Translations under genes and position numbers: made by a program
Shown: positions 500 through 62,519 of the stretch, piece by piece
Layout of the letters: every line of letters starts with the position of its first letter
Position numbering within the stretch: the stretch's first letter is position 1
IMG/VR virus record: IMGVR_UViG_3300045988_052780
DNA length: 64,000 nucleotides
Reading direction: 5' to 3' (one strand)
From: a virus
Notes under the pieces: model-generated
The model's input: only the letters and a program-made list of their open reading frames with translations
The model's database searches: none
What the model was told of the DNA's origin: nothing

Positions 500-1246
500 T
501 TACACCTCACCCTCGGTAGGTGAGTGATTTATTAAGTATTCGTATTTCTTGTTCTCACTACTAACTATCTTGCCATAGATTTCTATTTCGTGTAATAGTC
601 TATTCTTGATAGCCTCTTCTTCCGTGTCATACCATTCGATTAAGGATTCTCCATCCTTCTTTATATAGCATCTCCAGCATTTACCATCTCGTCTATTAGA
701 GTGATAACTAACACCTACTACTTTACCGTAGTGTCTGTTAACTACATTTATTGCTTGAGATACTACTCTAAGATTCTCCATTCTATTGTCTAGTCTAATT
801 CCATTAATATGGTCCACTACAGTCTTAGCATCGTAACCCTCTGTTTCAGTCAGAATCTTATGAATTAGCCGCGTCTTACCATCAGTTTTAGTTACTGCGT
901 AACCTTCACTATTAATATAAATCTTAAACTGTTGTAAGAACTCTTTCTTATCTAAATCGAATATTACTTCACCAGTGATTTCACCATGTACTCCTCTACA
1001 TACACAGACATTATCTCTCCACTCATTAGCATCCTTCTGGGTGAATTGAGATATCTCTCCATGTCTATACATTTGTAAATAGTGCTTTCTACAATAATAC
1101 TGTCCATCTCCCTTAAACTTACTTACTCTACCAGTGCCATTACCGACACTAGCTCCACATATACAGCAAATTCTTTCGTTAGTCTCCATATTTATAAAGT
1201 TGTTACTTGTTTCACTTAATGAGACAAAGATACAACTTATTCCCAA
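500..1246 (-). CDS. HNH homing endonuclease (HNH_3 motif DHINGIRLDNRMENLR plus AP2-like DNA-binding domain) inserted inside nrdD
   Basis: ORF track 248 aa with the DHINGxxxDNRxxNLR HNH motif and a C-terminal AP2-like YHSNRRDGKCWRCYIKKDGE...EEEAIKNR segment. It sits between the two nrdD halves. Confidence 0.8.
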   Translation of the reverse strand: MGISCIFVSLSETSNNFINMETNERICCICGASVGNGTGRVSKFKGDGQYYCRKHYLQMYRHGEISQFTQKDANEWRDNVCVCRGVHGEITGEVIFDLDKKEFLQQFKIYINSEGYAVTKTDGKTRLIHKILTETEGYDAKTVVDHINGIRLDNRMENLRVVSQAINVVNRHYGKVVGVSYHSNRRDGKCWRCYIKKDGESLIEWYDTEEEAIKNRLLHEIEIYGKIVSSENKKYEYLINHSPTEGEV

Positions 1247-1390
1247 TAGAAACTAACTTTAATGGACATACTTAATAAACGGGAGAATACTTCAATTCTC
1301 CTCTATATGTTACCATATAGTTCCGACTATCGCATACCTTAATACATTATATTCACACATAACGTATTAAAGTCCTCTATATTTAGTCTG

Positions 1391-2518
1391 TCAGGCTGCA
1401 CACTTAACGTTGCTTGCCCCCTGTTGTCCTAATATTAGGAGTTCCAAGTCAATTAATAGAGGTTTTAATTCCCCATCGAAATTCCAAGGGAATGTAAGAA
1501 TACACTTAGTGCGTTCATTATTAAACCAAGTCATAAACTTCTTCTGTAACCAGTTCAAAGAATCCCATATGGGCTTAGTTCCATCTGGGAATACAAACTC
1601 ACCAAATAAACCTTCAAAGTAATTCTTATCAAAATAACTGATATTCCAGAATACTGATTGGAAGTTACGAGCAGCTGCTGGTTGATTGATTGAATATACA
1701 ATCTGTTGGAACTTCTGTTCAATAGTCTTATCAATATTTCTATGTTTATCAACCATCTCTTCTGGACGTTTCCAATAATCATCACCCCATTCTTTACGAG
1801 CGAAGTAATCGAAATACATTAGGAACTCACCAGTAGCTACTGCTCCAGCGAATTGTGAGCTGATAGCAAATACCAGATTAACAAACATACCGCAGAAGGA
1901 GTCCAGATTCTTAGGCTTGGCAGACAAACCTCCAATTGGCTGTAGCCCTTCAAGTAGGAACGGATACATAGTGATAGCCACGCAGTAGGGCATAATTGAT
2001 GTTTCATCATGCTTGTAAAGTTCATGAGATTCCAGTTGTCTAATATACTCCTTAGCTAAATCTTCACCATATAACTGCCTAATTTTATCTGTAAGGATTG
2101 CTCTATTAACTTTAATTACATCACCCTTAAACAACTCTCCATTTAAAGTTACTATATTCTTCTCAGTAACATTGGCATTAGCATCATATTTACTACCTGT
2201 AGCAGCATTAGATGCTTTGGCATAATCTTTAATAAACTGCTTCTTCCCAGCTAATGCTCTGAGTTCAGCTTGTTTATGTCGATACAAAATGAATGCTTTA
2301 GCGACATCATAGTAATCACAAGCCATCAAAGCCTTTTCAATTTGATCTTGAAGCTCTTCTACTGATACTATGTTGTTAATATACAATTCATCTTTAATAT
2401 CATCCAAAATATCGGAATCAATTGGTTCGTTAACAGCATTGAACGCCTTAGTAATAGCCGCGTCAATCTTATTAATATCGAAAGGTTCTACTCTCTTATT
2501 TCTTTTAATTACTAACAT
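1391..2518 (-). CDS. nrdD: anaerobic ribonucleoside-triphosphate reductase NrdD, N-terminal part (ATP-cone plus start of catalytic domain)
   Basis: N-terminal ATP-cone (MLVIKRNKRVEPFDINKIDAAITKAF...) followed by class III RNR-like sequence. The ORF ends 144 nt before the HNH start. Confidence 0.7.
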   Translation of the reverse strand: MLVIKRNKRVEPFDINKIDAAITKAFNAVNEPIDSDILDDIKDELYINNIVSVEELQDQIEKALMACDYYDVAKAFILYRHKQAELRALAGKKQFIKDYAKASNAATGSKYDANANVTEKNIVTLNGELFKGDVIKVNRAILTDKIRQLYGEDLAKEYIRQLESHELYKHDETSIMPYCVAITMYPFLLEGLQPIGGLSAKPKNLDSFCGMFVNLVFAISSQFAGAVATGEFLMYFDYFARKEWGDDYWKRPEEMVDKHRNIDKTIEQKFQQIVYSINQPAAARNFQSVFWNISYFDKNYFEGLFGEFVFPDGTKPIWDSLNWLQKKFMTWFNNERTKCILTFPWNFDGELKPLLIDLELLILGQQGASNVKCAA

Positions 2519-28621: not shown

Positions 28622-28692
28622 TCGCCATCAGAGGATTCGAACCCCTGCCACTACGCGTACTGTGGACCCGATCAAAACGATTGTTAATGGCG
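28622..28692 (-). ncRNA. tRNA-like element (perfect acceptor stem and T-arm, non-cloverleaf body); possible pseudo-tRNA or Y-RNA-like tRNA mimic
   Basis: Minus strand reads CGCCATT...AGGGG-TTCGAAT-CCTCT-GATGGCG-A. The 7-bp acceptor and canonical T-arm fold, but the 39 nt between them do not form D and anticodon arms; they contain an ACGCGT palindrome. Confidence 0.4.
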
Positions 28693-29165
28693 TTGGAGCA
28701 GTGATTAAGACTTATGTCCCTAAAGAGGTATGCTGCAACCACCCCACTCCTTGTACTTCGGAGCACATCTTATTCCATATGCTAGACTCTGCTTTAGTCT
28801 TCATCGCCAGAGTTAATTATAATCCAGTCTCTAGCCTGGTTTCATTTTCACTTGCTTAAACTTACCACACTTAGTGCATACCAAAAGGTATACATGGGAA
28901 TAAGGAATTTCTTCATCATTCATGTATACATTCATGTGCTTTAATTCCTTCCAATTATGCCGACACGTTAGTTTCAGTATCCAATTCTTTAATAGCTCTT
29001 TCATATTACAATATTTTAGTCACTTTGCCAAACACGGATTTAGTCCATCCATTAATCTTACCATGATTGTTGCCTATAAGGACTCCTCTATCTCCCTTAG
29101 CTTTGACTAAGTGAGTATAGTATCTACCTTTGACTTTACAAAAGACAATATCTCCCACTTCTACT

Positions 29166-30404: not shown

Positions 30405-30806
30405 CTAGTCATTTAATACATAATCACAATAAGTATCAACAAAATCTTTGGCTTCTTTCAAACCACATTTGGTAGACTCCTTTACATGCTTAACTGCTTG
30501 TAGTTTGGTACCCCTCTGCACAAGCTGCTTCATCTTAAAAAAGTCTTCACATGACAAATCAATTGTATTATTCCAACGCTTCTCGTATGCAAGCATTGCA
30601 TCATTATACTCTTGAGGATGTTCTGTCCAAGTGATTTGCTGGTCCAGGATAACTGTACAAGTTCCATCAAGTATATCATACTCTCTGGAATCTACAGTAA
30701 ATTTGCCAGCTTCTAGCACCACTGTGTCTGTAGGGAATGGAATCATCTCTGATGAGATTGATACTTCCTCTATTGTCTTATCGTCTTTTACAAACTTTAC
30801 GTACAT
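30405..30806 (-). CDS. hypothetical protein
   Basis: 133-aa ORF. Confidence 0.4.
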   Translation of the reverse strand: MYVKFVKDDKTIEEVSISSEMIPFPTDTVVLEAGKFTVDSREYDILDGTCTVILDQQITWTEHPQEYNDAMLAYEKRWNNTIDLSCEDFFKMKQLVQRGTKLQAVKHVKESTKCGLKEAKDFVDTYCDYVLND

Positions 30807-30831
30807 AATCTTTAAGTATTAATTAGTAATG

Positions 30832-31573
30832 TGGCGAGAAGGTGACTCGAACACCCAACCTTGCGATTATTTCTTTGGACGTGTGCTCTTAGCATTTAAT
30901 CGTCCGTAATTCTCAGTTAAGCTGTGACAATTTGGACACAGTAACTGTAGATTGTCTTCTGAGTTGTTGGTAGCATCACCATCTATGTGGTGAACATGAA
31001 GTGGAGGTTCTCCTGTAATCGGGTGAATCTTATCCCACCCACAAACTTGGCACTTACGTTCATGCTTATCCATGAGATAGTCCCTAATGTGTTTAGAAAT
31101 GGAACGAGTTCCACACATGCCAGTTTCTTCACCTTCCTTCCATCTTCTAATGTACTCTTTATGTTTGTACTCGGCTTGACATACGTTGTTACAGTACTTA
31201 GTAGTACTGTTATGATTGCTTAATTCTTTACCGCAATTTAAACAGACTCTAGTTACTAACTTCTTGCCCTTGTTAAAGGTTTCGTTAGCATTTATACTTC
31301 TTCGTTTAACTATGCTGATGTTAAGTCTCTTAGCAACCCTTCGTATGTTTGAGCCTGTACAGCCGTACATTCTACCAATCTCCTCATAAGACACTTTGTC
31401 TGTTAATATTAACCTTTCTAAGTTCTCTTTCTCTAAATTCCAGTCCATTTGTATAACTCTTAATTGAATTACAAATGTAATGATTTTAGATAAAGAAACC
31501 TAGGAATTCGATTCTTATTAAGAATTATTAACAGTATGAGTCGCACGCTCTAACCAGTTGAGCTATCTCGCCA
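30832..31573 (-). tRNA. tRNA-Met(CAT) split in the anticodon loop by a 667-nt intervening sequence carrying an HNH endonuclease gene (exon 1 31536..31573, exon 2 30832..30868)
   Basis: 5' half GGCGAGA TA GCTC AACTGGTTA GAGC G TGCGA CTCAT... and 3' half ...AA TCGCA AGGTT GGGTG TTCGAGT CACCT TCTCGCC A. Acceptor (7/7), anticodon stem (5/5) and T-stem pair perfectly once the halves are joined. Confidence 0.6.
30867..31448 (-). CDS. HNH homing endonuclease with N-terminal sigma-70 region-4-like HTH, inside the tRNA-Met intervening sequence
   Basis: HNH motifs CQVCGW...HVHHIDGD...NLQLLCPNCH. Paralog of 44439..45047. Its stop codon TAA abuts the exon-2 anticodon stem. Confidence 0.8.
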   Translation of the reverse strand: MDWNLEKENLERLILTDKVSYEEIGRMYGCTGSNIRRVAKRLNISIVKRRSINANETFNKGKKLVTRVCLNCGKELSNHNSTTKYCNNVCQAEYKHKEYIRRWKEGEETGMCGTRSISKHIRDYLMDKHERKCQVCGWDKIHPITGEPPLHVHHIDGDATNNSEDNLQLLCPNCHSLTENYGRLNAKSTRPKK

Positions 31574-31693
31574 TTAATAAGAACATAAAGCTCGTCGTGT
31601 TTACATCGTCACCAATGTAACCTTAATACCTCCCGTTTGCTTCACTGCCGGCTAGTCTGGCTTTGTCTCCTTATGTTCTTATGGATTTATAAG

Positions 31694-32497
31694 TTAACGA
31701 TATTTATCGAATATGCTATCTGTAGCTTCAGTATCCCACATAGTAGCAATAATTGCTCCTATTTCATTTGCCTTAAAGACAATTGGATCCTCAAGCTGAC
31801 GTTTTCTAGCCTCTTCTTTACCTGAATACATTCTGATAGTTATATTATCTGTCATAGTATCATAGGGAGCTGCTATACACCAGTCACTGTCATTTAAGGT
31901 AAGTGGACTGAAGCTTACACTGTCCTCAACTTCTGGGTGTCCTATAGCACGCATATATTGCCATCCAGAAGAGATATCGTCCACTACAAACGGGAATCTT
32001 GAGAAGTATTCAACGATTTCATTTACTATACTCTTTGGCATATCGGAATCTATATCTATTCTAGGAACCCATTGCATGTTATTAATATTCCTTATTTTAC
32101 GCAATTCCTCTCCGGCCTTTACAATAGCTTCAATGTTCTCTTCAGGGATAACTCCCTTATAAGTTGAAATGGGACCACAAGCTAAGTTGTACTTCTTCAA
32201 TACTTTAAAGAAATCATCATAAGGAACTATCATACAAGAGGGACTAACTTTCTTGATTCTGTCAATAAGAGAGGCAATTTCATCTCTAGATTTACTAGAA
32301 CCTTTAGCAGTTAATAGAGTACGAAGTACTTCAGCATTCTTAGTTCTACCTAATCCATTAGCTTCCAGCTTAGCAATCTGAGCTTTAATATCTTCTGTCT
32401 TATCGACATTCTGCCCTTCCAAGTATTTCTTACAATACTCCATAGAAGCAACTACTAGGGCATTACGTAGAGCTTCTGCATTCAAATTATTTACCAT
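31694..32497 (-). CDS. hypothetical protein, paralog of 26545..27366
   Basis: See 26545..27366. Confidence 0.5.
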   Translation of the reverse strand: MVNNLNAEALRNALVVASMEYCKKYLEGQNVDKTEDIKAQIAKLEANGLGRTKNAEVLRTLLTAKGSSKSRDEIASLIDRIKKVSPSCMIVPYDDFFKVLKKYNLACGPISTYKGVIPEENIEAIVKAGEELRKIRNINNMQWVPRIDIDSDMPKSIVNEIVEYFSRFPFVVDDISSGWQYMRAIGHPEVEDSVSFSPLTLNDSDWCIAAPYDTMTDNITIRMYSGKEEARKRQLEDPIVFKANEIGAIIATMWDTEATDSIFDKYR

Positions 32498-44144: not shown

Positions 44145-44354
44145 CTACTTCTTTCTAAACATCACTATACCTGGAGATACAAATACTATAACTGCAACAA
44201 CACCAATCCATGAAGTTATTACAAGAGTTAATTCCATTAATAAGTCACACAAGTTGTAAGTGTAATTAGAATTTCTCTTATAGTCACGATATTCATAGAA
44301 ACACACAGCCATCAAAGCAACTACACATCCGATAATATAAATAATCAGTATCAT
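44145..44354 (-). CDS. small membrane protein
   Basis: 69 aa with two hydrophobic helices. Confidence 0.4.
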   Translation of the reverse strand: MILIIYIIGCVVALMAVCFYEYRDYKRNSNYTYNLCDLLMELTLVITSWIGVVAVIVFVSPGIVMFRKK

Positions 44355-44379
44355 ACATTTTTAATTATTAGTTAATAAG

Positions 44380-45197
44380 TACCCCGACTGCGATTCGAAC
44401 GCAGATATGTGGCTTAGTATAAGAACTAGGAGTCGAACCTAATTCTTATTGTTATTAATTTCATTTTTATGGTAACGGTAATAGGAACGTTCTCCACACT
44501 TGTTCTTAGACTTATAAGTATCAAGCTGTGAATCACAGTTAGGACATATGCATCGTAAATTATCTCTACGATTGTTAGATGCATGTCCGTCTATATGGTC
44601 AATGATAAAGACCAGCTCTTTACCATTCCAGATAGGCTTCATACCACATATAGCACATACTCCACCTTGCTCTTTTAGAATATCTTTCTTGAAGGCCTTA
44701 GGAGAGTAGTTAGCTCTCATTATACTTTCATCACCGTCCAAAAGCTTCTTGTAAGCAAGCATATGAGCATGTTCAAATTGACATTTAGGACCACAGTACT
44801 TGCCATAACTTCCGTTATAACTAATAAGTTCTGCACCACAGTTTAAACAGTATTTGTACTTCCTATTGAATGTTTCTTTAGGATTAATTTTACGTTTAAT
44901 TGGTAACTCTATGCCAAGTCTACGCGCTACATTCTTAATATTAGCACCTGAACAACCATATCTTCTTCCTATTTCCTCATAACTGAGCTTATCTATCAAA
45001 ATTAAATGCTCAAGTTGAGCTTTCTCGTTAATCCATTTACTTGTCATATTCGTCTAAATTAGAAATTCGTACCTCAAAGATACGAATCTTTTACGAATTA
45101 AACAAGTAAATGGATGTTTTGTTGAAATTAATAACAGTGAGTTACGGACTCACCAGCCGTATGAAGGCCACTGTTCTATCCCTTGAACTATCGAGGC
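44380..45197 (-). tRNA. tRNA split in the anticodon loop by a ~746-nt intervening sequence carrying an HNH endonuclease gene. The anticodon is TCT (Arg) or TCA (UGA-reading) depending on the exact junction (exon 1 45162..45197, exon 2 44380..44415).
   Basis: 5' half GCCTCGA TA GTTC AAGGGATA GAAC A GTGGC CTTCA... and 3' half ...AA GCCAC ATAT CTGCG TTCGAAT CGCAG TCGGGGT A. The anticodon stem GTGGC/GCCAC is perfect and the acceptor pairs 7/7 with two G:U. Confidence 0.55.
44439..45047 (-). CDS. HNH homing endonuclease with N-terminal HTH, paralog of 30867..31448, inside a tRNA intervening sequence
   Basis: CAICGM...IDHIDGH...NLRCICPNCD HNH motifs. The N-terminal 60 aa are about 60% identical to the other HNH. 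Confidence 0.8.
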   Translation of the reverse strand: MTSKWINEKAQLEHLILIDKLSYEEIGRRYGCSGANIKNVARRLGIELPIKRKINPKETFNRKYKYCLNCGAELISYNGSYGKYCGPKCQFEHAHMLAYKKLLDGDESIMRANYSPKAFKKDILKEQGGVCAICGMKPIWNGKELVFIIDHIDGHASNNRRDNLRCICPNCDSQLDTYKSKNKCGERSYYRYHKNEINNNKN

Positions 45198-45265
45198 ATT
45201 AACAGAAGACATTGTAATCATATGTAACATGACACCTGCTGTATGTCTTCTTAGGCAATACTATT

Positions 45266-45613
45266 TTATGAACATAAAGCTATCAGTTCTTTAGTAGTCC
45301 TTTTATATTGCAATCTGTTATATCTTTCTCCCTTACATATTGCACAACTACAGGGAGTACTCATGGTTTTAAACCTAAAGGTATTCTTAGCATTATAAAG
45401 TTCAGTCCAGCTTATTGCTTTACGCCACTTATTACTGCTACAGATATACCAATGCGGAAATGACCGTTTAATCCTAGTAATATACTTCTGGTCTTTCTTT
45501 AGGTTCCTCCACAATTTGTTTCTGTGAATTCTTGATTCTTTCATGTTTAGTTCTTCCATCGTCTCGTCCATTGATATTAACAATGTCCTGACCTGGATTG
45601 TAACCAGTACCAA
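45266..45613 (-). CDS. hypothetical basic Cys-containing protein
   Basis: 115-aa ORF. Confidence 0.35.
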   Translation of the reverse strand: MVLVTIQVRTLLISMDETMEELNMKESRIHRNKLWRNLKKDQKYITRIKRSFPHWYICSSNKWRKAISWTELYNAKNTFRFKTMSTPCSCAICKGERYNRLQYKRTTKELIALCS

Positions 45614-45670
45614 TGAATTTCTTCATATCTAGTCCCGATAAATTGATTGTCTTCATACGATAATTAAATT

Positions 45671-45958
45671 TTAATAGTTAAATACACTGTGATACTTTAG
45701 CCAATCTCTATAAGCTTTAGCATCCATGTTATAGGAATAATTCCAGTGAAACCTTCTCAGCTCCTTAATAAGTTCTGTTCGTATTTCATACGTGAGACGC
45801 ACACCAGGTGCTGTATTAGATATGTAGAATTGTTCTTTAACAAATGAGAAATACCCGTATAATATAGGTGTGCGCTTTCCCTTAAACTTATTAAGTAGAA
45901 TAGCATGCAAACGGCTGTTATCCTTGCTGTACTTCGTCGGATATAGTGTCACGTTCAT
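45671..45958 (-). CDS. hypothetical protein
   Basis: 95-aa ORF. Confidence 0.35.
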   Translation of the reverse strand: MNVTLYPTKYSKDNSRLHAILLNKFKGKRTPILYGYFSFVKEQFYISNTAPGVRLTYEIRTELIKELRRFHWNYSYNMDAKAYRDWLKYHSVFNY

Positions 45959-46244
45959 TGTCTAATATAGCAACAGCTAGACTATAACCATTATATAATG
46001 TCCCAATAAGACGTTTAAGTTTCTTCTTTATCTTCCTAGGAAGTTTTGGAAGATTAACATTCATAAGCTCTTCAGCTTCTTTATGTCTGGCTCTAACAGC
46101 AAGTTCTAAGTTCTCAGGGACATCTTCGGAATCAAAGAATGCGTTCAATACCGGCTCCTCTGGTAACAATCTTATGACTCTGTAAGCTACTCTTGCTTTC
46201 TTATTGTTACTGAGCTGATCAACGTGTTTAAATTTCAATTTCAT
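45918..46244 (-). CDS. hypothetical protein
   Basis: 108-aa ORF. Confidence 0.35.
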   Translation of the reverse strand: MKLKFKHVDQLSNNKKARVAYRVIRLLPEEPVLNAFFDSEDVPENLELAVRARHKEAEELMNVNLPKLPRKIKKKLKRLIGTLYNGYSLAVAILDNERDTISDEVQQG

Positions 46245-46269
46245 AATCTTTCATTAATAAATTAATAAG

Positions 46270-46359
46270 AGGAAGGACAGGGATTCGAACCCTGGGATCG
46301 CTGTTACACGACCAACAGTTTTCAAGACTGCCGCATTAAGCCAACTCTGCCACCCTTCC
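46270..46359 (-). tRNA. tRNA-Ser(TGA), type II
   Basis: GGAAGGG TG GCAGAGTTGGCTTAATGC, anticodon stem GCAGT/ACTGT with loop CTTGAAA, long variable arm, T-arm CAGGG TTCGAAT CCCTG. Confidence 0.75.
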
Positions 46360-46483
46360 ATTAATAAGAGAGCATCTATCTTTCGATTACATACTCAATG
46401 ACACTCTCCGAATTACTCCGGTCCTCGACAGTAGACCTTTACTGTTTAGCTAAAGCTGTCGACACTTTAGGTTATCAGTTTCG

Positions 46484-46558
46484 CACGCCCTGCACGACTC
46501 GAACATGCAACACACCCAGTTTTGGAGACAGGGGCTCTACCGATTGAGCTAAGGACGC
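46484..46558 (-). tRNA. tRNA-Trp(CCA)
   Basis: Closely parallels E. coli tRNA-Trp: GAGC C CCTGT CTCCAAA ACTGG GTGT..., T-loop TTCGAGT, discriminator G. Confidence 0.75.
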
Positions 46559-46820
46559 ATTTTAGTTACCAATCCTGAATGATTGTAAGGAACATTACTA
46601 TAAAACCCGCTGTACCTACAGCAACTCTGCCATCTTCATTTAGTGGAGAATACACTGCTATTAGAATTAATACAAATCCTAATAATAGTTGTAATATAAA
46701 CTTAACATTTCTCATAATCACGCATCTCCAGAATTAGCAATCCACATGATGTATATGATCATAATCACACCTACGACAAATTCTGTTAACATAATCAAAT
46801 ACGTTTAAAATTAAACATTG

Positions 46821-46892
46821 CGGCGAGTGCAGGATTCGAACCTGCGACCAATTGGTTAACGGCCAACTGCTCTACCACTGAGCTAACTCGCC
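46821..46892 (-). tRNA. tRNA-Asn(GTT) (C at position 33)
   Basis: Perfect acceptor GGCGAGT/ACTCGCC, D-arm GCTC AGTGGTA GAGC, anticodon stem GTTGG/CCAAT with loop CCGTTAA, T-arm GCAGG TTCGAAT CCTGC, discriminator G. Confidence 0.65.
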
Positions 46893-46901
46893 ATTTAAAT
46901 A

Positions 46902-47099
46902 CTAAACACCATCTAGCATTATTAAGAAACCTATAATGGCTATCATAGAACCAATTATGATTGGAACTCCTATAATATCTCCTAAGTTTACTAGTATTGG
47001 CAACAATAGAATCATGCATCCAATTAGAAACATGATAAGTCCTTTAATAAATCTGTGTGTCATAAAATCTATATATTTCCTACTGACAGGCGGCAGCAT
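46902..47099 (-). CDS. small membrane protein
   Basis: 65 aa, very hydrophobic. Confidence 0.35.
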   Translation of the reverse strand: MLPPVSRKYIDFMTHRFIKGLIMFLIGCMILLLPILVNLGDIIGVPIIIGSMIAIIGFLIMLDGV

Positions 47100-47357
47100 G
47101 ATTATCCATGCGGAATTATCATGCCCGTGGGAGTCATTACATAAGTCTTAGAGACTTGAATGAAATACCACTTAACTGCTTTCTTAATTAACTTAAATAG
47201 TTTCATAATAACTCAGTTTTAGTCAGTAAATTAATAATCTAAAGAAACCACTCTATCTTCACAGACCGAGTGGTCGAATACAATTATTTGTACTTCAAGT
47301 TGCTTAATTAAAACATTTCCAGTGACTCCAGAGGGACTTGAACCCTCGACCCACGGA

Positions 47358-47795
47358 TTAACAGAATATTTTAGATATTCTATCTTCAGAGATAACATAA
47401 TCTTTGGTGAAATTTATTCCTTTAACTTGTCCATTCTTGGATGTTTCAGTCCTAAGAGTAATTGTACGTCTATCAACCAACTCAGACATAGGGAATAAAT
47501 AAATTGTATCTAAATCACAACATATAACTACATCCACTTCATCAATGGTGTATTTATGAGTTTCTTTGTTACTCCAGTTATTTGTCACTAAACTAAAACA
47601 AAGAGAGTTATTCTCTGTCTTAGTATCAGTGGTTTTAACTTGACACTTAAAGAATTTGTTGTTGTGGAAGACAACGAAATCAAAAGGGAGATTGTCAGAC
47701 ATAGGTAATAATACATCAATACCATACTTAGCTAACTCTCCGATTGCTACACGCTCTCCCATTTCACCTAATTGTTTGTTATTTCTAACTTCCAT
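47358..47795 (-). CDS. YraN/I-Ssp6803I-like PD-(D/E)XK homing endonuclease
   Basis: GE.GERVAIGELAKYGIDVLLP...DFVVFHNNKFFKCQVKTT matches the UPF0102/I-Ssp6803I core. The start ATG is 1 nt after tRNA-Lys, and the last codons TGT TAA lie inside the CTGTTAA anticodon loop of the split tRNA. Confidence 0.6.
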   Translation of the reverse strand: MEVRNNKQLGEMGERVAIGELAKYGIDVLLPMSDNLPFDFVVFHNNKFFKCQVKTTDTKTENNSLCFSLVTNNWSNKETHKYTIDEVDVVICCDLDTIYLFPMSELVDRRTITLRTETSKNGQVKGINFTKDYVISEDRISKIFC

Positions 47796-47796
47796 G

Positions 47797-47868
47797 TCAC
47801 TCCGCAGGGACTTGAACCCTGTTCTATAGATTAAAAGTCTATAGCATATCCATACATGCTCCGGAGTG
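47797..47868 (-). tRNA. tRNA-Lys(TTT)
   Basis: Fully canonical: CACTCCG GA GCAT GTATGGAT ATGC T ATAGA CTTTTAA TCTAT AGAA CAGGG TTCAAGT CCCTG CGGAGTG A. Confidence 0.85.
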
Positions 47869-48007
47869 AGACATCCGTTAATCCGTTGCTCTAAGCCAGC
47901 TGAGCTATGGAGTCATCCTACAGAAGACAGAATTAAATCACACGAATAAATTGGCGGTTGCCAAGTCATGAAGTGCTGACGTCTTCTTATATTTCACTAA
48001 ATCGAAG

Positions 48008-48081
48008 AGTGGGCGCTCGGATTCGAACCGAGGAATACAGATTTTGCAGACCTGCCTATTAAGCCACTCTAGCACGCCCAC
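48008..48081 (-). tRNA. tRNA-Cys(GCA)
   Basis: Perfect acceptor GTGGGCG/CGCCCAC, anticodon stem CAGGT/ATCTG with loop CTGCAAA, T-arm CTCGG TTCGAAT CCGAG, discriminator U as in bacterial tRNA-Cys. Confidence 0.75.
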
Positions 48082-48179
48082 ATGTCAATGGACTAATGTG
48101 AGGCGAAAGTGAAACGGTTTAATCATTAAGGTTTTAATGATTGGATCTAGTGAAACTAAACAAACATACAAATAAATCG

Positions 48180-49040
48180 TCTGGGTAGTGTGGCTCGAAC
48201 ACACGACATCTAGGTCTAGGAACTAATGCTTTAGAGATTTATCCAATCATTAGAGTTAATAGATTTAATATCTGACGTTTTGGTTGGAAGGTTGTAGCTC
48301 TTACACCACTTTCTAACAGCGTTATCTGAGACTCCAAAGTCCTTTCCAATTTGAGTAAATGGTTTAAATCTAATTAATTCTTTTAGTTGCTCTCTTGTAG
48401 GTCTCTCGACCTTCTGTGCATTCTTAGTAGCACACTCTACACATATACCATTAGCCTTAGAGACTTTGTTAGTGTTACACTGAGAACAGATATAAACTTT
48501 AGGTAAAGGCTCAGATTCCTCTGAACTCCTAACAAAAGAATTAGATACTTTATGTCCTAGCATGTTCTCTAACAGGTAATCCTCTGCTTTGTTATAAGCA
48601 CCACTGTTGTTAGCAGGTGGTTTGAGTCTTAATGTCTTGTCAGTTGAACACTCACTTACTGGAACAAGGTAAACCTTGTTATCGTAACAGGTTGCAAAGT
48701 AATCTATCTGCTCATCATCGTATCTCCTACGAATTGTCTCTTTGGTGTTGGTAGTCTGTGTGACTGTACTAAAATGAAATGCATCTAAATCTCGTACACC
48801 ATTCCTAATAGGATTACTAGACGACTTGCACTGAACTTTAAGGAGTTCATCGCCAGTATCTACTATCATGTCATATCTGGCACAATCACCATAAGGAATT
48901 GAGCAATCAAATCCCATTGACATGAATCCCATAAGGCAGGTTAGTTCTGTAATGTTACCTTTAGATTTTGTATAATCCATATGTTATACTCTAAAGTTTA
49001 GTTCCCAAACCTAGCATTCTACCTACTGAATTATACCCAG
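48180..49040 (-). tRNA. tRNA-Pro(TGG) split at the 3' side of the anticodon loop by a ~790-nt intervening sequence carrying a YraN-like endonuclease gene (exon 1 ~49003..49040, exon 2 48180..48216)
   Basis: 5' half CTGGGTA TA ATTC AGTAGGTA GAAT G CTAGG TTTGGGA and 3' half (GA) CCTAG ATGTC GTGTG TTCGAGC CACAC TACCCAG A. All stems are perfect. The intervening sequence ends with CCTAGA, duplicating the start of exon 2. Confidence 0.6.
48231..48980 (-). CDS. YraN/I-Ssp6803I-like PD-(D/E)XK homing endonuclease with C-terminal zinc-ribbon and HTH DNA-binding extension
   Basis: The N-terminus ITELTCLMGFMSMGFDCSIP...DMIVDTGDELLKVQCKSS is paralogous to 47358..47795. C-terminal CSQCN...CVEC and a DFGVSDNAVRKW HTH. 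Confidence 0.6.
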   Translation of the reverse strand: MDYTKSKGNITELTCLMGFMSMGFDCSIPYGDCARYDMIVDTGDELLKVQCKSSSNPIRNGVRDLDAFHFSTVTQTTNTKETIRRRYDDEQIDYFATCYDNKVYLVPVSECSTDKTLRLKPPANNSGAYNKAEDYLLENMLGHKVSNSFVRSSEESEPLPKVYICSQCNTNKVSKANGICVECATKNAQKVERPTREQLKELIRFKPFTQIGKDFGVSDNAVRKWCKSYNLPTKTSDIKSINSNDWINL

Positions 49041-49110
49041 AGTGCGGAAGTCTAAATATGCTTGACATGGGTTATGCTGTAAGACTTCCTATCAATTCGA
49101 AATCAAGACG

Positions 49111-49184
49111 TGGGCAAGATAGGACTTGAACCTATGACCCCTACCTTATCAGAGTAGTGCTCTAACCAACTGAGCTACTTGCCC
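49111..49184 (-). tRNA. tRNA-Ile(GAT)
   Basis: GGGCAAG TA GCTC AGTTGGTTA GAGC A CTACT CTGATAA GGTAG, T-arm ATAGG TTCAAGT CCTAT. Confidence 0.85.
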
Positions 49185-49272
49185 ATCCACAGAAGACGCT
49201 ACCAATACTAATCATGTAAGAGGCGTGTGCTGTACGTCTTCTTAAATAAAATAATCATTTATGGATTATATG

Positions 49273-49289
49273 GTTGCGGAGATGGGAGT
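49273..49289. repeat. 17-bp direct repeat ttgcggagatgggagtt. It duplicates the 3' end of tRNA-Met (50000..50016) and flanks the GIY-YIG gene on its far side.
   Basis: 16/17 identity with 50000..50016. It is followed by the hairpin GATGGGA(N14)TCCCATC. Confidence 0.7.
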
Positions 49290-49936
49290 TATTGTGCATA
49301 TTCCCATCTATATCCGTATGCTGTCTTAGTCTTGTGCTTAGCTGCATTAGAGATATGGCTTCTAACACCTCCGTTATATGTCTTAGCATAACCGTTATCA
49401 ACACACCAATGTGCTGCATCAGCTACGCTATCAAACACTTGCACAAGCATATCTTCGTTGTACTGTTCTATCTTTACTGGAGGTTTACAGGAGCCACAAC
49501 GTGACTTGCTATTATTGTGAGACCTCTTAATGTCCTTCACTACTTTAGACACTGTGTCTGGATGACATCCTACTATTTTAGCAGTATCTTTCATCGAATG
49601 TCCAGCAGCGTAAAGCTCACGAATTTCATCATAGTTCCAAATAATAGAACCATCTCCACCGGTAGTGGCATTATAACCATTACCATAGGTTTTAAATTCA
49701 TTTATCCAGTAAGTTTCTCTTCCGCTAGATTCCTTTGACGAGCACTCTTCTAGCATTTCTATGCTAAATGAATCAATTCCATATTTATTCATGGCTCTAT
49801 ACAAAGGTCTATCTTTGCATCTCTCCTTCTTATAATCTCTACAGTGTTCTTTCCATCTCTTACTAACGGACGAAGTAGTTTTACCTATATACTTCTTTCC
49901 ATTTACATGGTTAGTTATGCAGTAAATATAAGACAT
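49289..49936 (-). CDS. GIY-YIG homing endonuclease (I-TevI/Seg-like) with C-terminal DNA-binding region
   Basis: N-terminal YIYCITNHVNGKKYIGKT...RWKEH is the GIY-YIG signature. The C-terminal half has NUMOD/HTH-like segments. Confidence 0.8.
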   Translation of the reverse strand: MSYIYCITNHVNGKKYIGKTTSSVSKRWKEHCRDYKKERCKDRPLYRAMNKYGIDSFSIEMLEECSSKESSGRETYWINEFKTYGNGYNATTGGDGSIIWNYDEIRELYAAGHSMKDTAKIVGCHPDTVSKVVKDIKRSHNNSKSRCGSCKPPVKIEQYNEDMLVQVFDSVADAAHWCVDNGYAKTYNGGVRSHISNAAKHKTKTAYGYRWEYAQ

Positions 49937-49999: not shown

Positions 50000-50078
50000 T
50001 TGCGGAGATGGGAGTCGAACCCAATATAACTAGCTTATGAGACTAGTATGATTTATATATCCGTTTCATTCCTCCGCA
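50000..50078 (-). tRNA. tRNA-Met/Ile2(CAT) with enlarged D-loop
   Basis: Acceptor TGCGGAG/CTCCGCA, anticodon stem CTAGT/GCTAG with loop CTCATAA, T-arm TTGGG TTCGACT CCCAT. The D region is 6 nt longer than standard. Confidence 0.5.
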
Positions 50079-50081
50079 AAG

Positions 50082-50153
50082 TGCTCCATACAGGATTCAA
50101 ACCTGTGACACGTAGGTTTAGGGTCTACTGTTCTATCGCTGAACTAATGGAGC
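50082..50153 (-). tRNA. tRNA with CUA anticodon (candidate amber-suppressor / TAG-decoding tRNA); loop is atypical (C33)
   Basis: Perfect acceptor GCTCCAT/ATGGAGC, D-arm GTTC AGCGATA GAAC, anticodon stem GTAG(A)/(C)CTAC with loop CCCTAAA, T-arm ACAGG TTTGAAT CCTGT. Confidence 0.5.
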
Positions 50154-52130: not shown

Positions 52131-52200
52131 TCAGCTAGGTGGGATTCGAACCCACACCACTTACATAATTTGTAAGTCTTCTAACTTAAATTACTAGCCT
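52131..52200 (-). ncRNA. tRNA-like element (canonical T-arm GTGGG TTCGAAT CCCAC plus 6-bp acceptor) with a non-cloverleaf body; candidate Y-RNA-like tRNA mimic or degenerate tRNA
   Basis: Minus strand is AGGCTAG TAATTTAAGTTAGAAGACTTACAAATTATGTAAGTGGTGT GGG-TTCGAAT-CCCAC CTAGCTG A. The body forms a 7-bp hairpin ACTTACA/TGTAAGT with a 5-nt loop instead of D and anticodon arms. It lies about 105 nt downstream of the vWA/Ro-like gene on the same strand. Confidence 0.4.
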
Positions 52201-54027: not shown

Positions 54028-54388
54028 CTTGTAAAATTAAATTGGCAGGTTAATCTGAGAGTTCTTTATTCTAATTGATAAAATGGGACACATAGACATC
54101 GAGCCAGCTTAATACAACTCGCTACTTACACACTACATGCCCCATATCAAATGAGGAAAGAGGTTCACTTGATGACCTATCTACGTGCTGATTATAACGT
54201 AGACCGTGCAGATTCTCTCTTACACAATACTATGATGGACTCAAACCATCTCCACCCCTAGGTGAACTTTCCGTTATTCGAATAGTACAGGTTTCAACTC
54301 TTTATAACGCCTTTAAGTCAAAGTATACTCCGGAATATACTCTTAGTTCATCAGACCAAGTTTGCGCTTAGAATTATCTAAGATTAAG

Positions 54389-55911: not shown

Positions 55912-55950
55912 TGGACCATCGCGGACTCGAACCGCGGTCTTCACAACTCT
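55912..55950 (-). ncRNA. tRNA 3'-half-like element (T-arm CGCGG TTCGAGT CCGCG plus acceptor 3' strand ATGGTCC A) with no matching 5' half nearby
   Basis: Canonical T-loop and 7-nt acceptor strand. I found no complementary GGACCAT plus D-arm within 700 nt upstream. Confidence 0.35.
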
Positions 55951-62439: not shown

Positions 62440-62519
62440 TTATTAATCAGACTCCTGCATATAGCAGAAGTTTCGTCCAGTCTCATCAGTGATTATTTTA
62501 TAGACTCCTGGTTGTCTTA

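Follow-up and report, generated by a model that had tools for sequence, protein, structure and literature searches.

A mobile HNH endonuclease cassette, apparently without a ribozyme, in the anticodon loop of a phage tRNA(CAT) gene

RESULTS

A tRNA(CAT) gene interrupted in its anticodon loop

The whole 64,000-nt stretch of DNA analysed here (the window) comes from a large phage genome, and all its genes lie on the minus strand. It carries replication genes (DnaB-like helicase, primase, RNase H and NrdD), a tRNA array of 23 genes detected by ARAGORN, an amber-suppressor tRNA(CTA), and RAGATH-34 and RAGATH-1 hammerhead RNAs. For the helicase, the nearest relatives are in uncultured human-gut phages; those in crAss-like and Bacteroides/Flavobacterium phages are more distant. 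Judged from such similarities, the host is bacterial and the relatives are phages of Bacteroidota.

A tRNA(CAT) gene running from 31572 to 30832 on the minus strand is interrupted by 667 nt, as read directly from the sequence (Table 1). The letters of the 5′ half are GGCGAGA-TA-GCTC-AACTGGTTA-GAGC-G-TGCGA-CTCAT and those of the 3′ half AA-TCGCA-AGGTT-GGGTG-TTCGAGT-CACCT-TCTCGCC-A. A preliminary description of the locus had placed the 5′ half at 31536..31573; the half is present, but it starts at 31572, position 31573 being a T. The joined tRNA is consequently 74 nt long and not 73 nt as stated there. Perfect complementarity of every stem had also been claimed; pairing is complete in all four stems, with 49-65 as a G.U pair. 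The joined halves show the features of a tRNA (cloverleaf, 7-nt anticodon loop, U33, purine at 37 and T loop), and ARAGORN in intron mode reports a tRNA-Met(cat) with a 667-nt intron at this locus. The earlier view that joining yields a canonical tRNA with the loop CTCATAA is thus borne out by this program and by intact alleles in relatives (see below). Standard ARAGORN and Rfam, both run on the whole window, missed the split gene.

The dinucleotide TA is repeated at both borders of the insert (CTCA-TA-CTGTT ... GAAA-TA-ATCGCA), so that three placements of the junction (35/36, 36/37 and 37/38) are equivalent. The joined sequence across the junction is GCGACTCATAATCGCA; a junction-spanning joined sequence is GAGCGTGCGACTCATAATCGCAAGGTTGG, with TAGGATTCATAACCCTA as its other version. 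We take the anticodon arm, GCGACUCAUAAUCGC, to resemble that of E. coli tRNA-Ile2, and either Met or Ile2 (lysidine) identity is possible for this tRNA on the basis of its sequence. It had been suggested that a second Met-CAT copy might compensate for the split one. A tRNA(CAT)-like gene does lie at 50079..50002 and is non-canonical; a canonical, unsplit tRNA(CAT) was found nowhere in the window.

Table 1. Positions of the split tRNA(CAT) gene, the parts of its insert and the other split tRNA genes of the window
Feature	Position	Strand	Remarks
5′ half of tRNA(CAT)	31536..31572	-	Acceptor 5′ strand, D arm, anticodon-stem 5′ strand TGCGA, loop CTCAT
3′ half of tRNA(CAT)	30832..30868	-	AA, anticodon-stem 3′ strand TCGCA, variable loop, T arm, acceptor 3′ strand, discriminator A
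Insert (leader and HNH ORF)	30869..31535	-	667 nt, mobile; absent from 11 orthologous loci
Leader	31449..31535	-	87 nt; conserved blocks from alignments of four lineages and consensus fold
Long-range helix, 5′ strand CUGUUAAUA	31526..31534	-	9 bp; starts at second insert base; RNAalifold
Long-range helix, 3′ strand UAUUAACAG	31400..31408	-	Within ORF codons 14-17; RNAalifold
HNH homing-endonuclease ORF	30867..31448	-	193 aa; Pfam HNH E=3e-7; stop TAA spans 3′ junction
Split tRNA-Arg(TCT)	44379..45197	-	746-nt insert; paralogous long-form HNH, ORF 44439..45047
Split tRNA-Pro(TGG)	48179..49040	-	788-nt insert; PD-(D/E)XK PF11645 ORF 48231..48980
Possible sister case	47322..47914	-	tRNA halves around tRNA-Lys(TTT) 47796..47868 and 145-aa PF11645 ORF 47358..47795

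The insert consists of a leader and an HNH endonuclease ORF

As had been described, the region between the halves holds only the HNH ORF and about 87 nt, which form a leader in front of the ORF. No insert sequence remains 3′ of the ORF. Its stop codon overlaps the anticodon loop, again as described, with TAA made of the last insert base, A37 and A38.

The protein has an HTH-like N-terminal region, a Cys-rich region and the HNH domain, an arrangement referred to here as the long form. H154, N161/N162 and the Cys pairs are invariant in the alignment. Between lineages, dN/dS is 0.04-0.13 and synonymous sites are saturated (dS 0.55-2.5). By these measures the ORF is under strong purifying selection and its product is functional-looking. 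Among 80 metagenome loci, most relatives of this protein are free-standing, adjoining tRNA genes rather than lying inside them, and often abut tRNA-Thr(TGT) or tRNA-Arg(TCT). Annotated HNH endonucleases likewise abut tRNA-Thr in the T5-like phage HdH2 and lie between tRNA-Leu and tRNA-Arg in the crAss-like cr116_1. From its gene neighbourhoods, the family is normally free-standing between the tRNA genes of phage tRNA arrays, the niche of free-standing homing endonucleases. The long form is typical of the free-standing copies.

From 5′ to 3′, the conserved blocks of the leader are ACTGTTAAWAA, a variable hairpin (deleted in L127), TCGAAY, the hairpin TAGGT-N6-AYCTA and the hairpin GTAATTC-AATTAA-GARTTAY, the last of which directly precedes the ATG. 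In addition, RNAalifold predicts a 9-bp helix between insert bases 2-10 and ORF bases 41-49. All four lineages preserve this helix, which contains one G.U pair and one compensatory change, from U-A to A-U. The compensating change is a synonymous one in an Ile codon, ATA to ATT, in L125. The inner leader helix CUAAAUUC/GAAUUUAG has one further compensatory change. In this consensus fold, which was derived from four sequences and has modest support, the AUG of the HNH ORF is paired. Read most simply, the predicted fold would repress translation of the endonuclease from read-through transcripts. Translational control is known for other phage homing-endonuclease genes. A pairing of the insert 3′ end (AAAGAAA) with a leader loop (UUUCUUU) was also considered and was discarded, as it is not conserved in L120 or L125.

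Relatives with and without the insert

In 11 IMG/VR contigs the orthologous locus contains an uninterrupted gene, GCGTGCGACTCATAATCGCAAGG, between colinear flanks, and the split-gene pattern is therefore not due to chance. The joined tRNA of the window, its 5′ half included, is identical to the intact alleles of L013 and L021; in their 5′ part, the remaining intact alleles vary from it only at D-loop position 20. The same insert was found at the same site in three further, diverged lineages (L127, L120-L123 and L125/L126). A protein search returned orthologous cassettes at 93% (P0001), 81% (P0002) and 78% (P0003) identity. Every orthologous cassette with both halves present occupies the same site of tRNA(CAT); among these, the insert is 657-668 nt long and the HNH stop is always formed by T plus AA of the exon. 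Megablast of the locus against GenBank phages gave no match. Junction-specific DNA searches of IMG/VR recovered the L001 contig again (as L026) and otherwise chance matches in coding DNA (L024 and L025).

Signs of mobility and of decay

The gene flanking the cassette downstream differs by a dS of 0.00-0.013 among L127, L120, L014 and L013. At this one site L127 carries a P0001-type insert and L120 a P0002-type insert, while L014 and L013 are empty. The inserts of L127 and L120 differ by a dS of 1.29. Near-identical flanks around diverged inserts indicate that a single backbone was invaded twice, from different donors. On this comparative evidence the cassette is actively mobile, and its invasions are recent and horizontal.

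The anticodon arm is TAGGAT/CCCTA in both invaded alleles and TGCGAC/TCGCA in the empty allele of the same backbone, and the tRNA is otherwise unchanged between them. The donor arm thus travelled with the insert: a few bases on either side were co-converted, which marks homing by break repair. The arm TRGGAKTCATAACCCYA is common as a phage tRNA-Met arm (34 contigs). Perfect and even compensating stems across lineages were considered as a sign of selection on the split tRNA; the recent invasions and the co-conversion of the arm undo this argument.

Several copies have lost parts. L001 lacks the 5′ half and the first 37 HNH codons. L162 (62% identity) retains an intact HNH ORF, the stop of which remains joined to an orphan 3′ half, but has lost the 5′ half; an intact tRNA-Met follows 46 nt downstream. 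Decayed copies of the cassette, judged by what is left of L001 and L162, therefore exist. The 5′ part is replaced in L124, possibly by an assembly break. In L125/L126 a second, intact tRNA-Met lies within ~1.2 kb upstream.

The insert compared with group I introns and other ribozymes

[quoted passage not shown] This kinship did not hold up, since the insert has no terminal G, too little sequence outside the ORF and no match to the covariance model R1 described below. The accompanying remark that 87 nt are too few for a standalone ribozyme core was correct. In a survey of bacterial tRNA group I introns, the shortest whole intron is at least 184 nt, compared with 87 nt (Met insert) and 38 nt (Pro insert) of non-ORF sequence in the window. 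For the 35/36, 36/37 and 37/38 placements the last insert base is A, T or A, respectively, and never G. The base before the insert is T36 in the 36/37 placement, which would suit a group I intron, and A in the other two. A U before the junction, true of one placement out of three, is not by itself diagnostic of group I. No internal guide sequence could be recognised close to the 5′ end of the Met insert.

An Rfam scan, proposed earlier as a check, gave no intron or ribozyme match at the Met locus at E ≤ 10 and no intron match in the whole window at gathering thresholds. Control introns revealed the weakness of this test. Rfam missed two introns with plain group I hallmarks, one without an ORF in the tRNA-Leu(TAA) gene of L004, at the classical position 34/35, and the other in the tRNA-Thr gene of L003. 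Because Rfam misses clear group I-like introns, its silence proves little here and leaves room for a group I reading of the insert; we therefore built R1, a covariance model of the 3′ core, from the introns of L003, L074, L115 and L086. On the independent ORF-less tRNA-Thr intron L106, R1 scored 114 bits. With filters off, it scored at most 4.4 bits in 30700..31700 (Met insert) and at most 9 bits in 44300..49200 (Arg and Pro inserts), so this stronger test was negative as well. The core motifs GGGAAACC, GTAGAGAC and GTCCAGAC are absent from the Met insert. A core might instead overlap the ORF; however, the ORF evolves as a protein-coding sequence, and its saturated synonymous sites leave no room for a conserved RNA core hidden within it.

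Introns that do house members of this HNH family look different. Short-form HNH ORFs occur in group I-like introns of tRNA-Thr(TGT) and tRNA-Ser(TGA) in L003, L074, L115, L086, L198 and L221, and ORF-less versions in L106 and many Clostridia MAGs. These introns resemble the Met insert in their HNH family (43-57% identity over the catalytic part) and in the 36/37 position, seen in tRNA-Thr(TGT), and both likenesses favour a group I reading. They differ from it in having a conserved core of ~200 nt, in following U and in ending in G, and their HNH proteins lack the N-terminal HTH region that the window protein has. In the four introns used for R1, ~180-270 nt of conserved non-ORF RNA contain TCGGGGAAACCT, GTGTAGAGACTT and AGTCCAGACTACAA. 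The three in tRNA-Thr follow T, and all four end in G. Their HNH protein is 132-136 aa long in the three intact copies, where it has no N-terminal region; the ORF of L115 is disrupted. In bacterial genomes, 20 cellular tRNA introns lie next to or surround an HNH of this family; a T precedes every one of them, 19 have G as their last base, and non-ORF sequence amounts to at least 190 nt in each. By these sequence criteria the Met insert is not a group I intron.

Scans of 30700..31700 (E ≤ 10) and 44300..49200 (E ≤ 5) detected no small ribozyme (hammerhead, HDV-like, twister, hatchet or pistol). The sole hammerhead of the window, at 62445..62518, is away from the split genes. Drawings of a bulge-helix-bulge or a hammerhead at the Met junctions did not fit: pairing CUCAUA/CUGUU by hand with GAAAUA/AUCGCA yields no central helix, and both junctions are unpaired in the MFE fold. 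A transposon with terminal inverted repeats and target duplication was also rejected. The borders share no repeat other than the 2-nt TA (a single nt for Arg and Pro), and there is no transposase.

Other split tRNA genes in the window and elsewhere

Two further tRNA genes of the window, tRNA-Arg(TCT) and tRNA-Pro(TGG), are split by endonuclease ORFs (Table 1). The Arg(TCT) insert, which is also present in L027, contains a relic of the Met junction, ACTCA-CTGTTATTAATT. Its 3′ end is a perfect acceptor/T-arm minihelix plus discriminator, located exactly at an alternative junction; such a minihelix is also found at the 3′ end of the free-standing relative L078. The Pro insert encodes an enzyme of PF11645, the I-Ssp6803I family. 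Compared with L030, its ORF differs at 2 of 750 nt and its non-ORF sequence at 0 of 38 nt, whereas 11 of the 74 positions in the tRNA halves are different and the flanks cannot be aligned. This comparison points to the Pro insert as another recent horizontal move. The two ends of this insert are complementary over 6+8 bp.

In the possible fourth case (47914..47322) the junction is ambiguous, and a canonical CTGTTAA loop results if it is set at 31/32. By sequence, the Arg(TCT) and Pro(TGG) insertions are similar to the Met insertion in being ribozyme-less; the fourth is less clear. Outside the window, tRNA-Ile(GAT) is split at 32/33 by a related HNH ORF in L005, and tRNA-Arg(TCG) by a GIY-YIG ORF in L032, which has a tRNA-like 3′ end with NCCA.

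DISCUSSION

We believe, with moderate confidence, that the locus arose by intron-less homing of a ribozyme-free endonuclease cassette into a dispensable tRNA gene. The HNH protein would cut or nick the uninterrupted tRNA(CAT) genes of co-infecting phages, and repair would copy the cassette in. The interrupted copy would be immune because its target site is split. The cassette may be transcribed together with the tRNA array, the leader fold pairing the start codon and so limiting HNH translation. The interrupted tRNA would most likely not be restored, and this would be tolerated because single phage tRNA genes are dispensable; the cassette would persist through super-Mendelian spread while old copies decay. 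Its place in the anticodon loop may reflect target specificity, the arm being the only part of a tRNA gene that is unique to one tRNA, and is also consistent with ancestry from intron-borne relatives. Unless some splicing route acts, the split tRNA is probably knocked out.

As fallbacks, the preliminary description had offered disruption of the gene and an intervening element of a new kind. Both stand, and the evidence favours the former because the insert is a mobile gene of a normally free-standing family, with recent horizontal invasions and decayed copies. The junctions are also heterogeneous (31/32 to 37/38) without a common motif, and some lineages have backup tRNA genes. Some observations count against disruption. 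The insertion is exact to the base, and its removal restores a canonical 7-nt loop (Met, Arg, Pro and the Ile gene of L005), whereas an initial insertion free of selection could have been imprecise. Every case falls within the anticodon loop, but ARAGORN looks only there. The split genes are the window's only CAT, TCT and TGG tRNAs, save the CAT-like gene at 50079..50002. Perfectly paired halves are kept in several lineages, which is uninformative because the invasions are recent.

The insert might instead be a ribozyme-less intron from which a working tRNA is restored, proteins of the phage or its Bacteroidota host cutting both junctions and an RNA ligase (RtcB or Rnl-type) rejoining the halves. 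Cutting might be done by enzymes of tRNA processing, drawn to a helix or a tRNA-like element at either end of the insert, or by some other endonuclease. Exact insertions in at least three window tRNAs and in L005, and the fact that the only canonical CAT, TCT and TGG tRNAs of the window are split, argue for this possibility, as do structures at the insert ends: the covarying 9-bp helix that starts right at the 37/38 junction of the Met insert, the Arg minihelix with its discriminator, the paired ends of the Pro insert and the tRNA-like 3′ end of L032. Against it, the inserts share no motif or geometry and have no bulge-helix-bulge. The presence of the Arg minihelix in free-standing L078 marks it as a feature of endonuclease mRNAs and not of splicing, and the Met leader helix encloses the start codon, for which translational control is an explanation. 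No RNA ligase, RtcB or Pnkp (ligase and repair genes) was found among the 53 window ORFs scanned, and decayed copies exist. We also know of no protein-dependent tRNA splicing in bacteria. Altogether we regard restoration by proteins as rather unlikely.

Alternatively, the halves might be kept for the sake of the endonuclease, the paired tRNA serving as a scaffold that makes the ends of the embedded mRNA defined and protected and lets it ride on transcription of the tRNA array. Endonuclease genes of this family normally have tRNAs or minihelices resembling them at their borders, and in every lineage, L162 included, the stop codon is joined to the 3′ half. However, the 5′ half is lost in L001 and L162, yet the HNH ORF of L162 is intact, and the invasions are too recent to show selection on the halves. 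We consider such a role improbable. A compact or degenerate group I intron with its catalytic core overlapping the ORF is very improbable indeed, given the missing terminal G and the results with R1.

Several known systems come close to the cassette. Bacterial tRNA group I introns with homing endonucleases also have the endonuclease ORF inside the anticodon loop, HNH and PF11645 enzymes, presence/absence polymorphism and exact insertion; unlike them, the window inserts have no ribozyme, terminal G, core motifs or covariance-model match. Free-standing homing endonucleases of phage tRNA regions include SegB and SegF of T4 and the HNH enzymes of the T5 tRNA region. The window cassette shares with such enzymes its protein family, genomic niche and co-conversion of flanking markers, and presumably also spread by cleavage of the cassette-free allele. 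The difference is that they sit between intact tRNA genes, whereas the cassette splits its gene. Archaeal bulge-helix-bulge introns, some of which contain homing endonucleases, and the split tRNAs of Nanoarchaeum offer a third comparison (PMC4090602). Like the archaeal introns, the Met insert is ribozyme-less and lies in the anticodon loop, and the TA ambiguity permits the 37/38 position; unlike them, it has junctions at which no bulge-helix-bulge can be drawn, and the host is, by the affinities of the phage, bacterial. We know of no tRNA splicing endonuclease in bacteria.

To our knowledge, homing-endonuclease genes are thought to survive within genes only inside a self-splicing intron or intein, and to be intergenic otherwise. 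A search of the literature turned up no account of a lineage of active endonucleases that resides in tRNA anticodon loops and lacks a ribozyme. The window contains such a lineage, active and diverged, with three to four cases from two enzyme families in 64 kb. Should protein-dependent splicing restore these tRNAs, it would be the first outside archaea and eukaryotes and would explain why endonuclease genes are tolerated in several tRNAs of one phage. If instead the genes are disrupted, phage tRNA genes would be expendable enough to serve as landing pads, which bears on the turnover of tRNA arrays and on why tRNA finders under-count phage tRNAs. The locus also offers what looks like a clean natural example of homing, with co-conversion tracts only a few bases long.

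Endonuclease inserts in other tRNA genes

Features found in the window in addition to the split tRNA(CAT) gene
Feature	Position	Strand	Remarks
NrdD ORF and HNH_3 ORF	500..2518	-	HNH_3 ORF at 500..1246, after NrdD
Acceptor/T-arm element (~28.6 kb)	28630..28700	-	CGCCATT ... AGGGG TTCGAAT CCTCT GATGGCG
Structured element, ~110 nt	31580..31690	-	directly upstream of split tRNA(CAT)
Split tRNA-Arg(TCT)	44379..45197	-	746-nt insert with 202-aa long-form HNH paralog
Separated tRNA halves, Lys/Asn-like body	47322..47914	-	insert contains whole tRNA-Lys(TTT) and PF11645 ORF
Split tRNA-Pro(TGG)	48179..49040	-	788-nt insert with PF11645 PD-(D/E)XK ORF
Free-standing GIY-YIG (SegE-like) endonuclease gene	49289..49936	-	between tRNA-Ile(GAT) and tRNA(CAT)-like gene
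Non-canonical tRNA(CAT)-like gene	50002..50079	-	acceptor TGCGGAG/CTCCGCA, long D loop, loop CTCATAA
tRNA, anticodon CTA (amber suppressor)	50081..50153	-	
Rfam-only tRNA (52.1 kb)	52131..52200	-	odd anticodon loop
Orphan T-arm-like hairpin	54234..54250	-	GATGG TTTGAGT CCATC; just downstream of RAGATH-34
RAGATH-34 RNA	54284..54381	-	86.9 bits
Orphan T arm (55.9 kb)	55920..55936	-	
RAGATH-1 hammerhead ribozyme	62445..62518	-	82.6 bits

The insert of the split tRNA-Arg(TCT) gene encodes an HNH protein of the long form, in which an N-terminal HTH-like region is present, and contains a relic of the tRNA(CAT) junction, ACTCA-CTGTTATTAATT. The same insert is found in comparison locus L027, where the ORF protein is 97% identical to that of the window. 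At its 3′ end the insert forms a perfect minihelix, ATAAGAA-TTAGG-TTCGACT-CCTAG-TTCTTAT, followed by A. A tRNA-like minihelix of this acceptor/T-arm type overlaps the stop codon of Arg-associated HNH genes (window 44417..44449; comparison locus L078, 930..1000). Since this terminal minihelix is present both in a free-standing gene (L078) and in a tRNA-internal gene (window), we suggest that tRNA-processing enzymes cut the Arg-associated HNH mRNAs out of tRNA-array transcripts.

The insert of tRNA-Pro(TGG) leaves only 38 nt outside its ORF. Its ends base-pair, AACUAA-A-CUUUAGAG with CUCUAAAG-CA-UUAGUU, and its final 5 nt repeat the 3′ strand of the anticodon stem. The insert in locus L030 shows 2 differences from that of the window over the 750 nt of the ORF, and none in the non-ORF nucleotides. 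Despite this near identity of the inserts, the tRNA halves of the two loci have 11 mismatches in 74 positions.

Between the separated Lys/Asn-like halves lie a complete tRNA-Lys(TTT) (47796..47868, minus strand) and a PF11645 ORF of 145 aa. Placement of the junction is ambiguous; at 31/32 it gives a canonical CTGTTAA loop. Possibly this cassette carries a replacement tRNA of its own.

Insertions of other kinds were seen in other genomes. In a 185-kb phage contig (L005, 4820..5206), adjacent tRNAs Ser, Gly and Trp have anticodon-region insertions of 42-64 nt; Rfam nonetheless still recognises all three as tRNA, with 42.8-51.2 bits. ORF-less introns of ~220-245 nt are located at 36/37 of tRNA-Thr(TGT) in bacterial MAGs, mostly Clostridia (L181-L246), with a free-standing HNH gene a short distance downstream of the intron-bearing tRNA. 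The HNH gene is inside this intron in two Bacilli MAGs (L198 and L221).

Other endonuclease genes and possible TAG recoding

The window contains at least six homing-endonuclease-type ORFs, including the HNH_3 ORF that follows NrdD. The NrdD ORF ends after 375 aa, comprising the ATP-cone and the NRDD profile as far as position 165 of 562, and CAGACTA stands directly after its stop codon. An endonuclease-bearing intron probably interrupts this protein gene, the remainder of which lies beyond the window edge.

TAG recoding in the phage group of the window is indicated by the presence of the suppressor tRNA. In-frame TAG codons occur in the GIY-YIG ORF within a split tRNA-Arg(TCG) at another comparison locus (L032, 947..1929).

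tRNA-like pieces and structured RNAs

Both ARAGORN and Rfam miss the tRNA(CAT)-like gene, whose positional counterpart in L030 is a called tRNA-Met adjoining the suppressor tRNA. Standard tRNA calling also leaves out the pieces at ~28.6, 52.1 and 55.9 kb.

The structured element upstream of the split tRNA(CAT) gene, for which Rfam gave no match, has a closing stem of 14 bp, ATAAGAACATAAGG / CTTTATGTTCTTAT, and includes CCAGACTAGCC. Relatives having an intact tRNA(CAT) keep this element, with wobble changes, and its counterpart in comparison locus L001 is longer.
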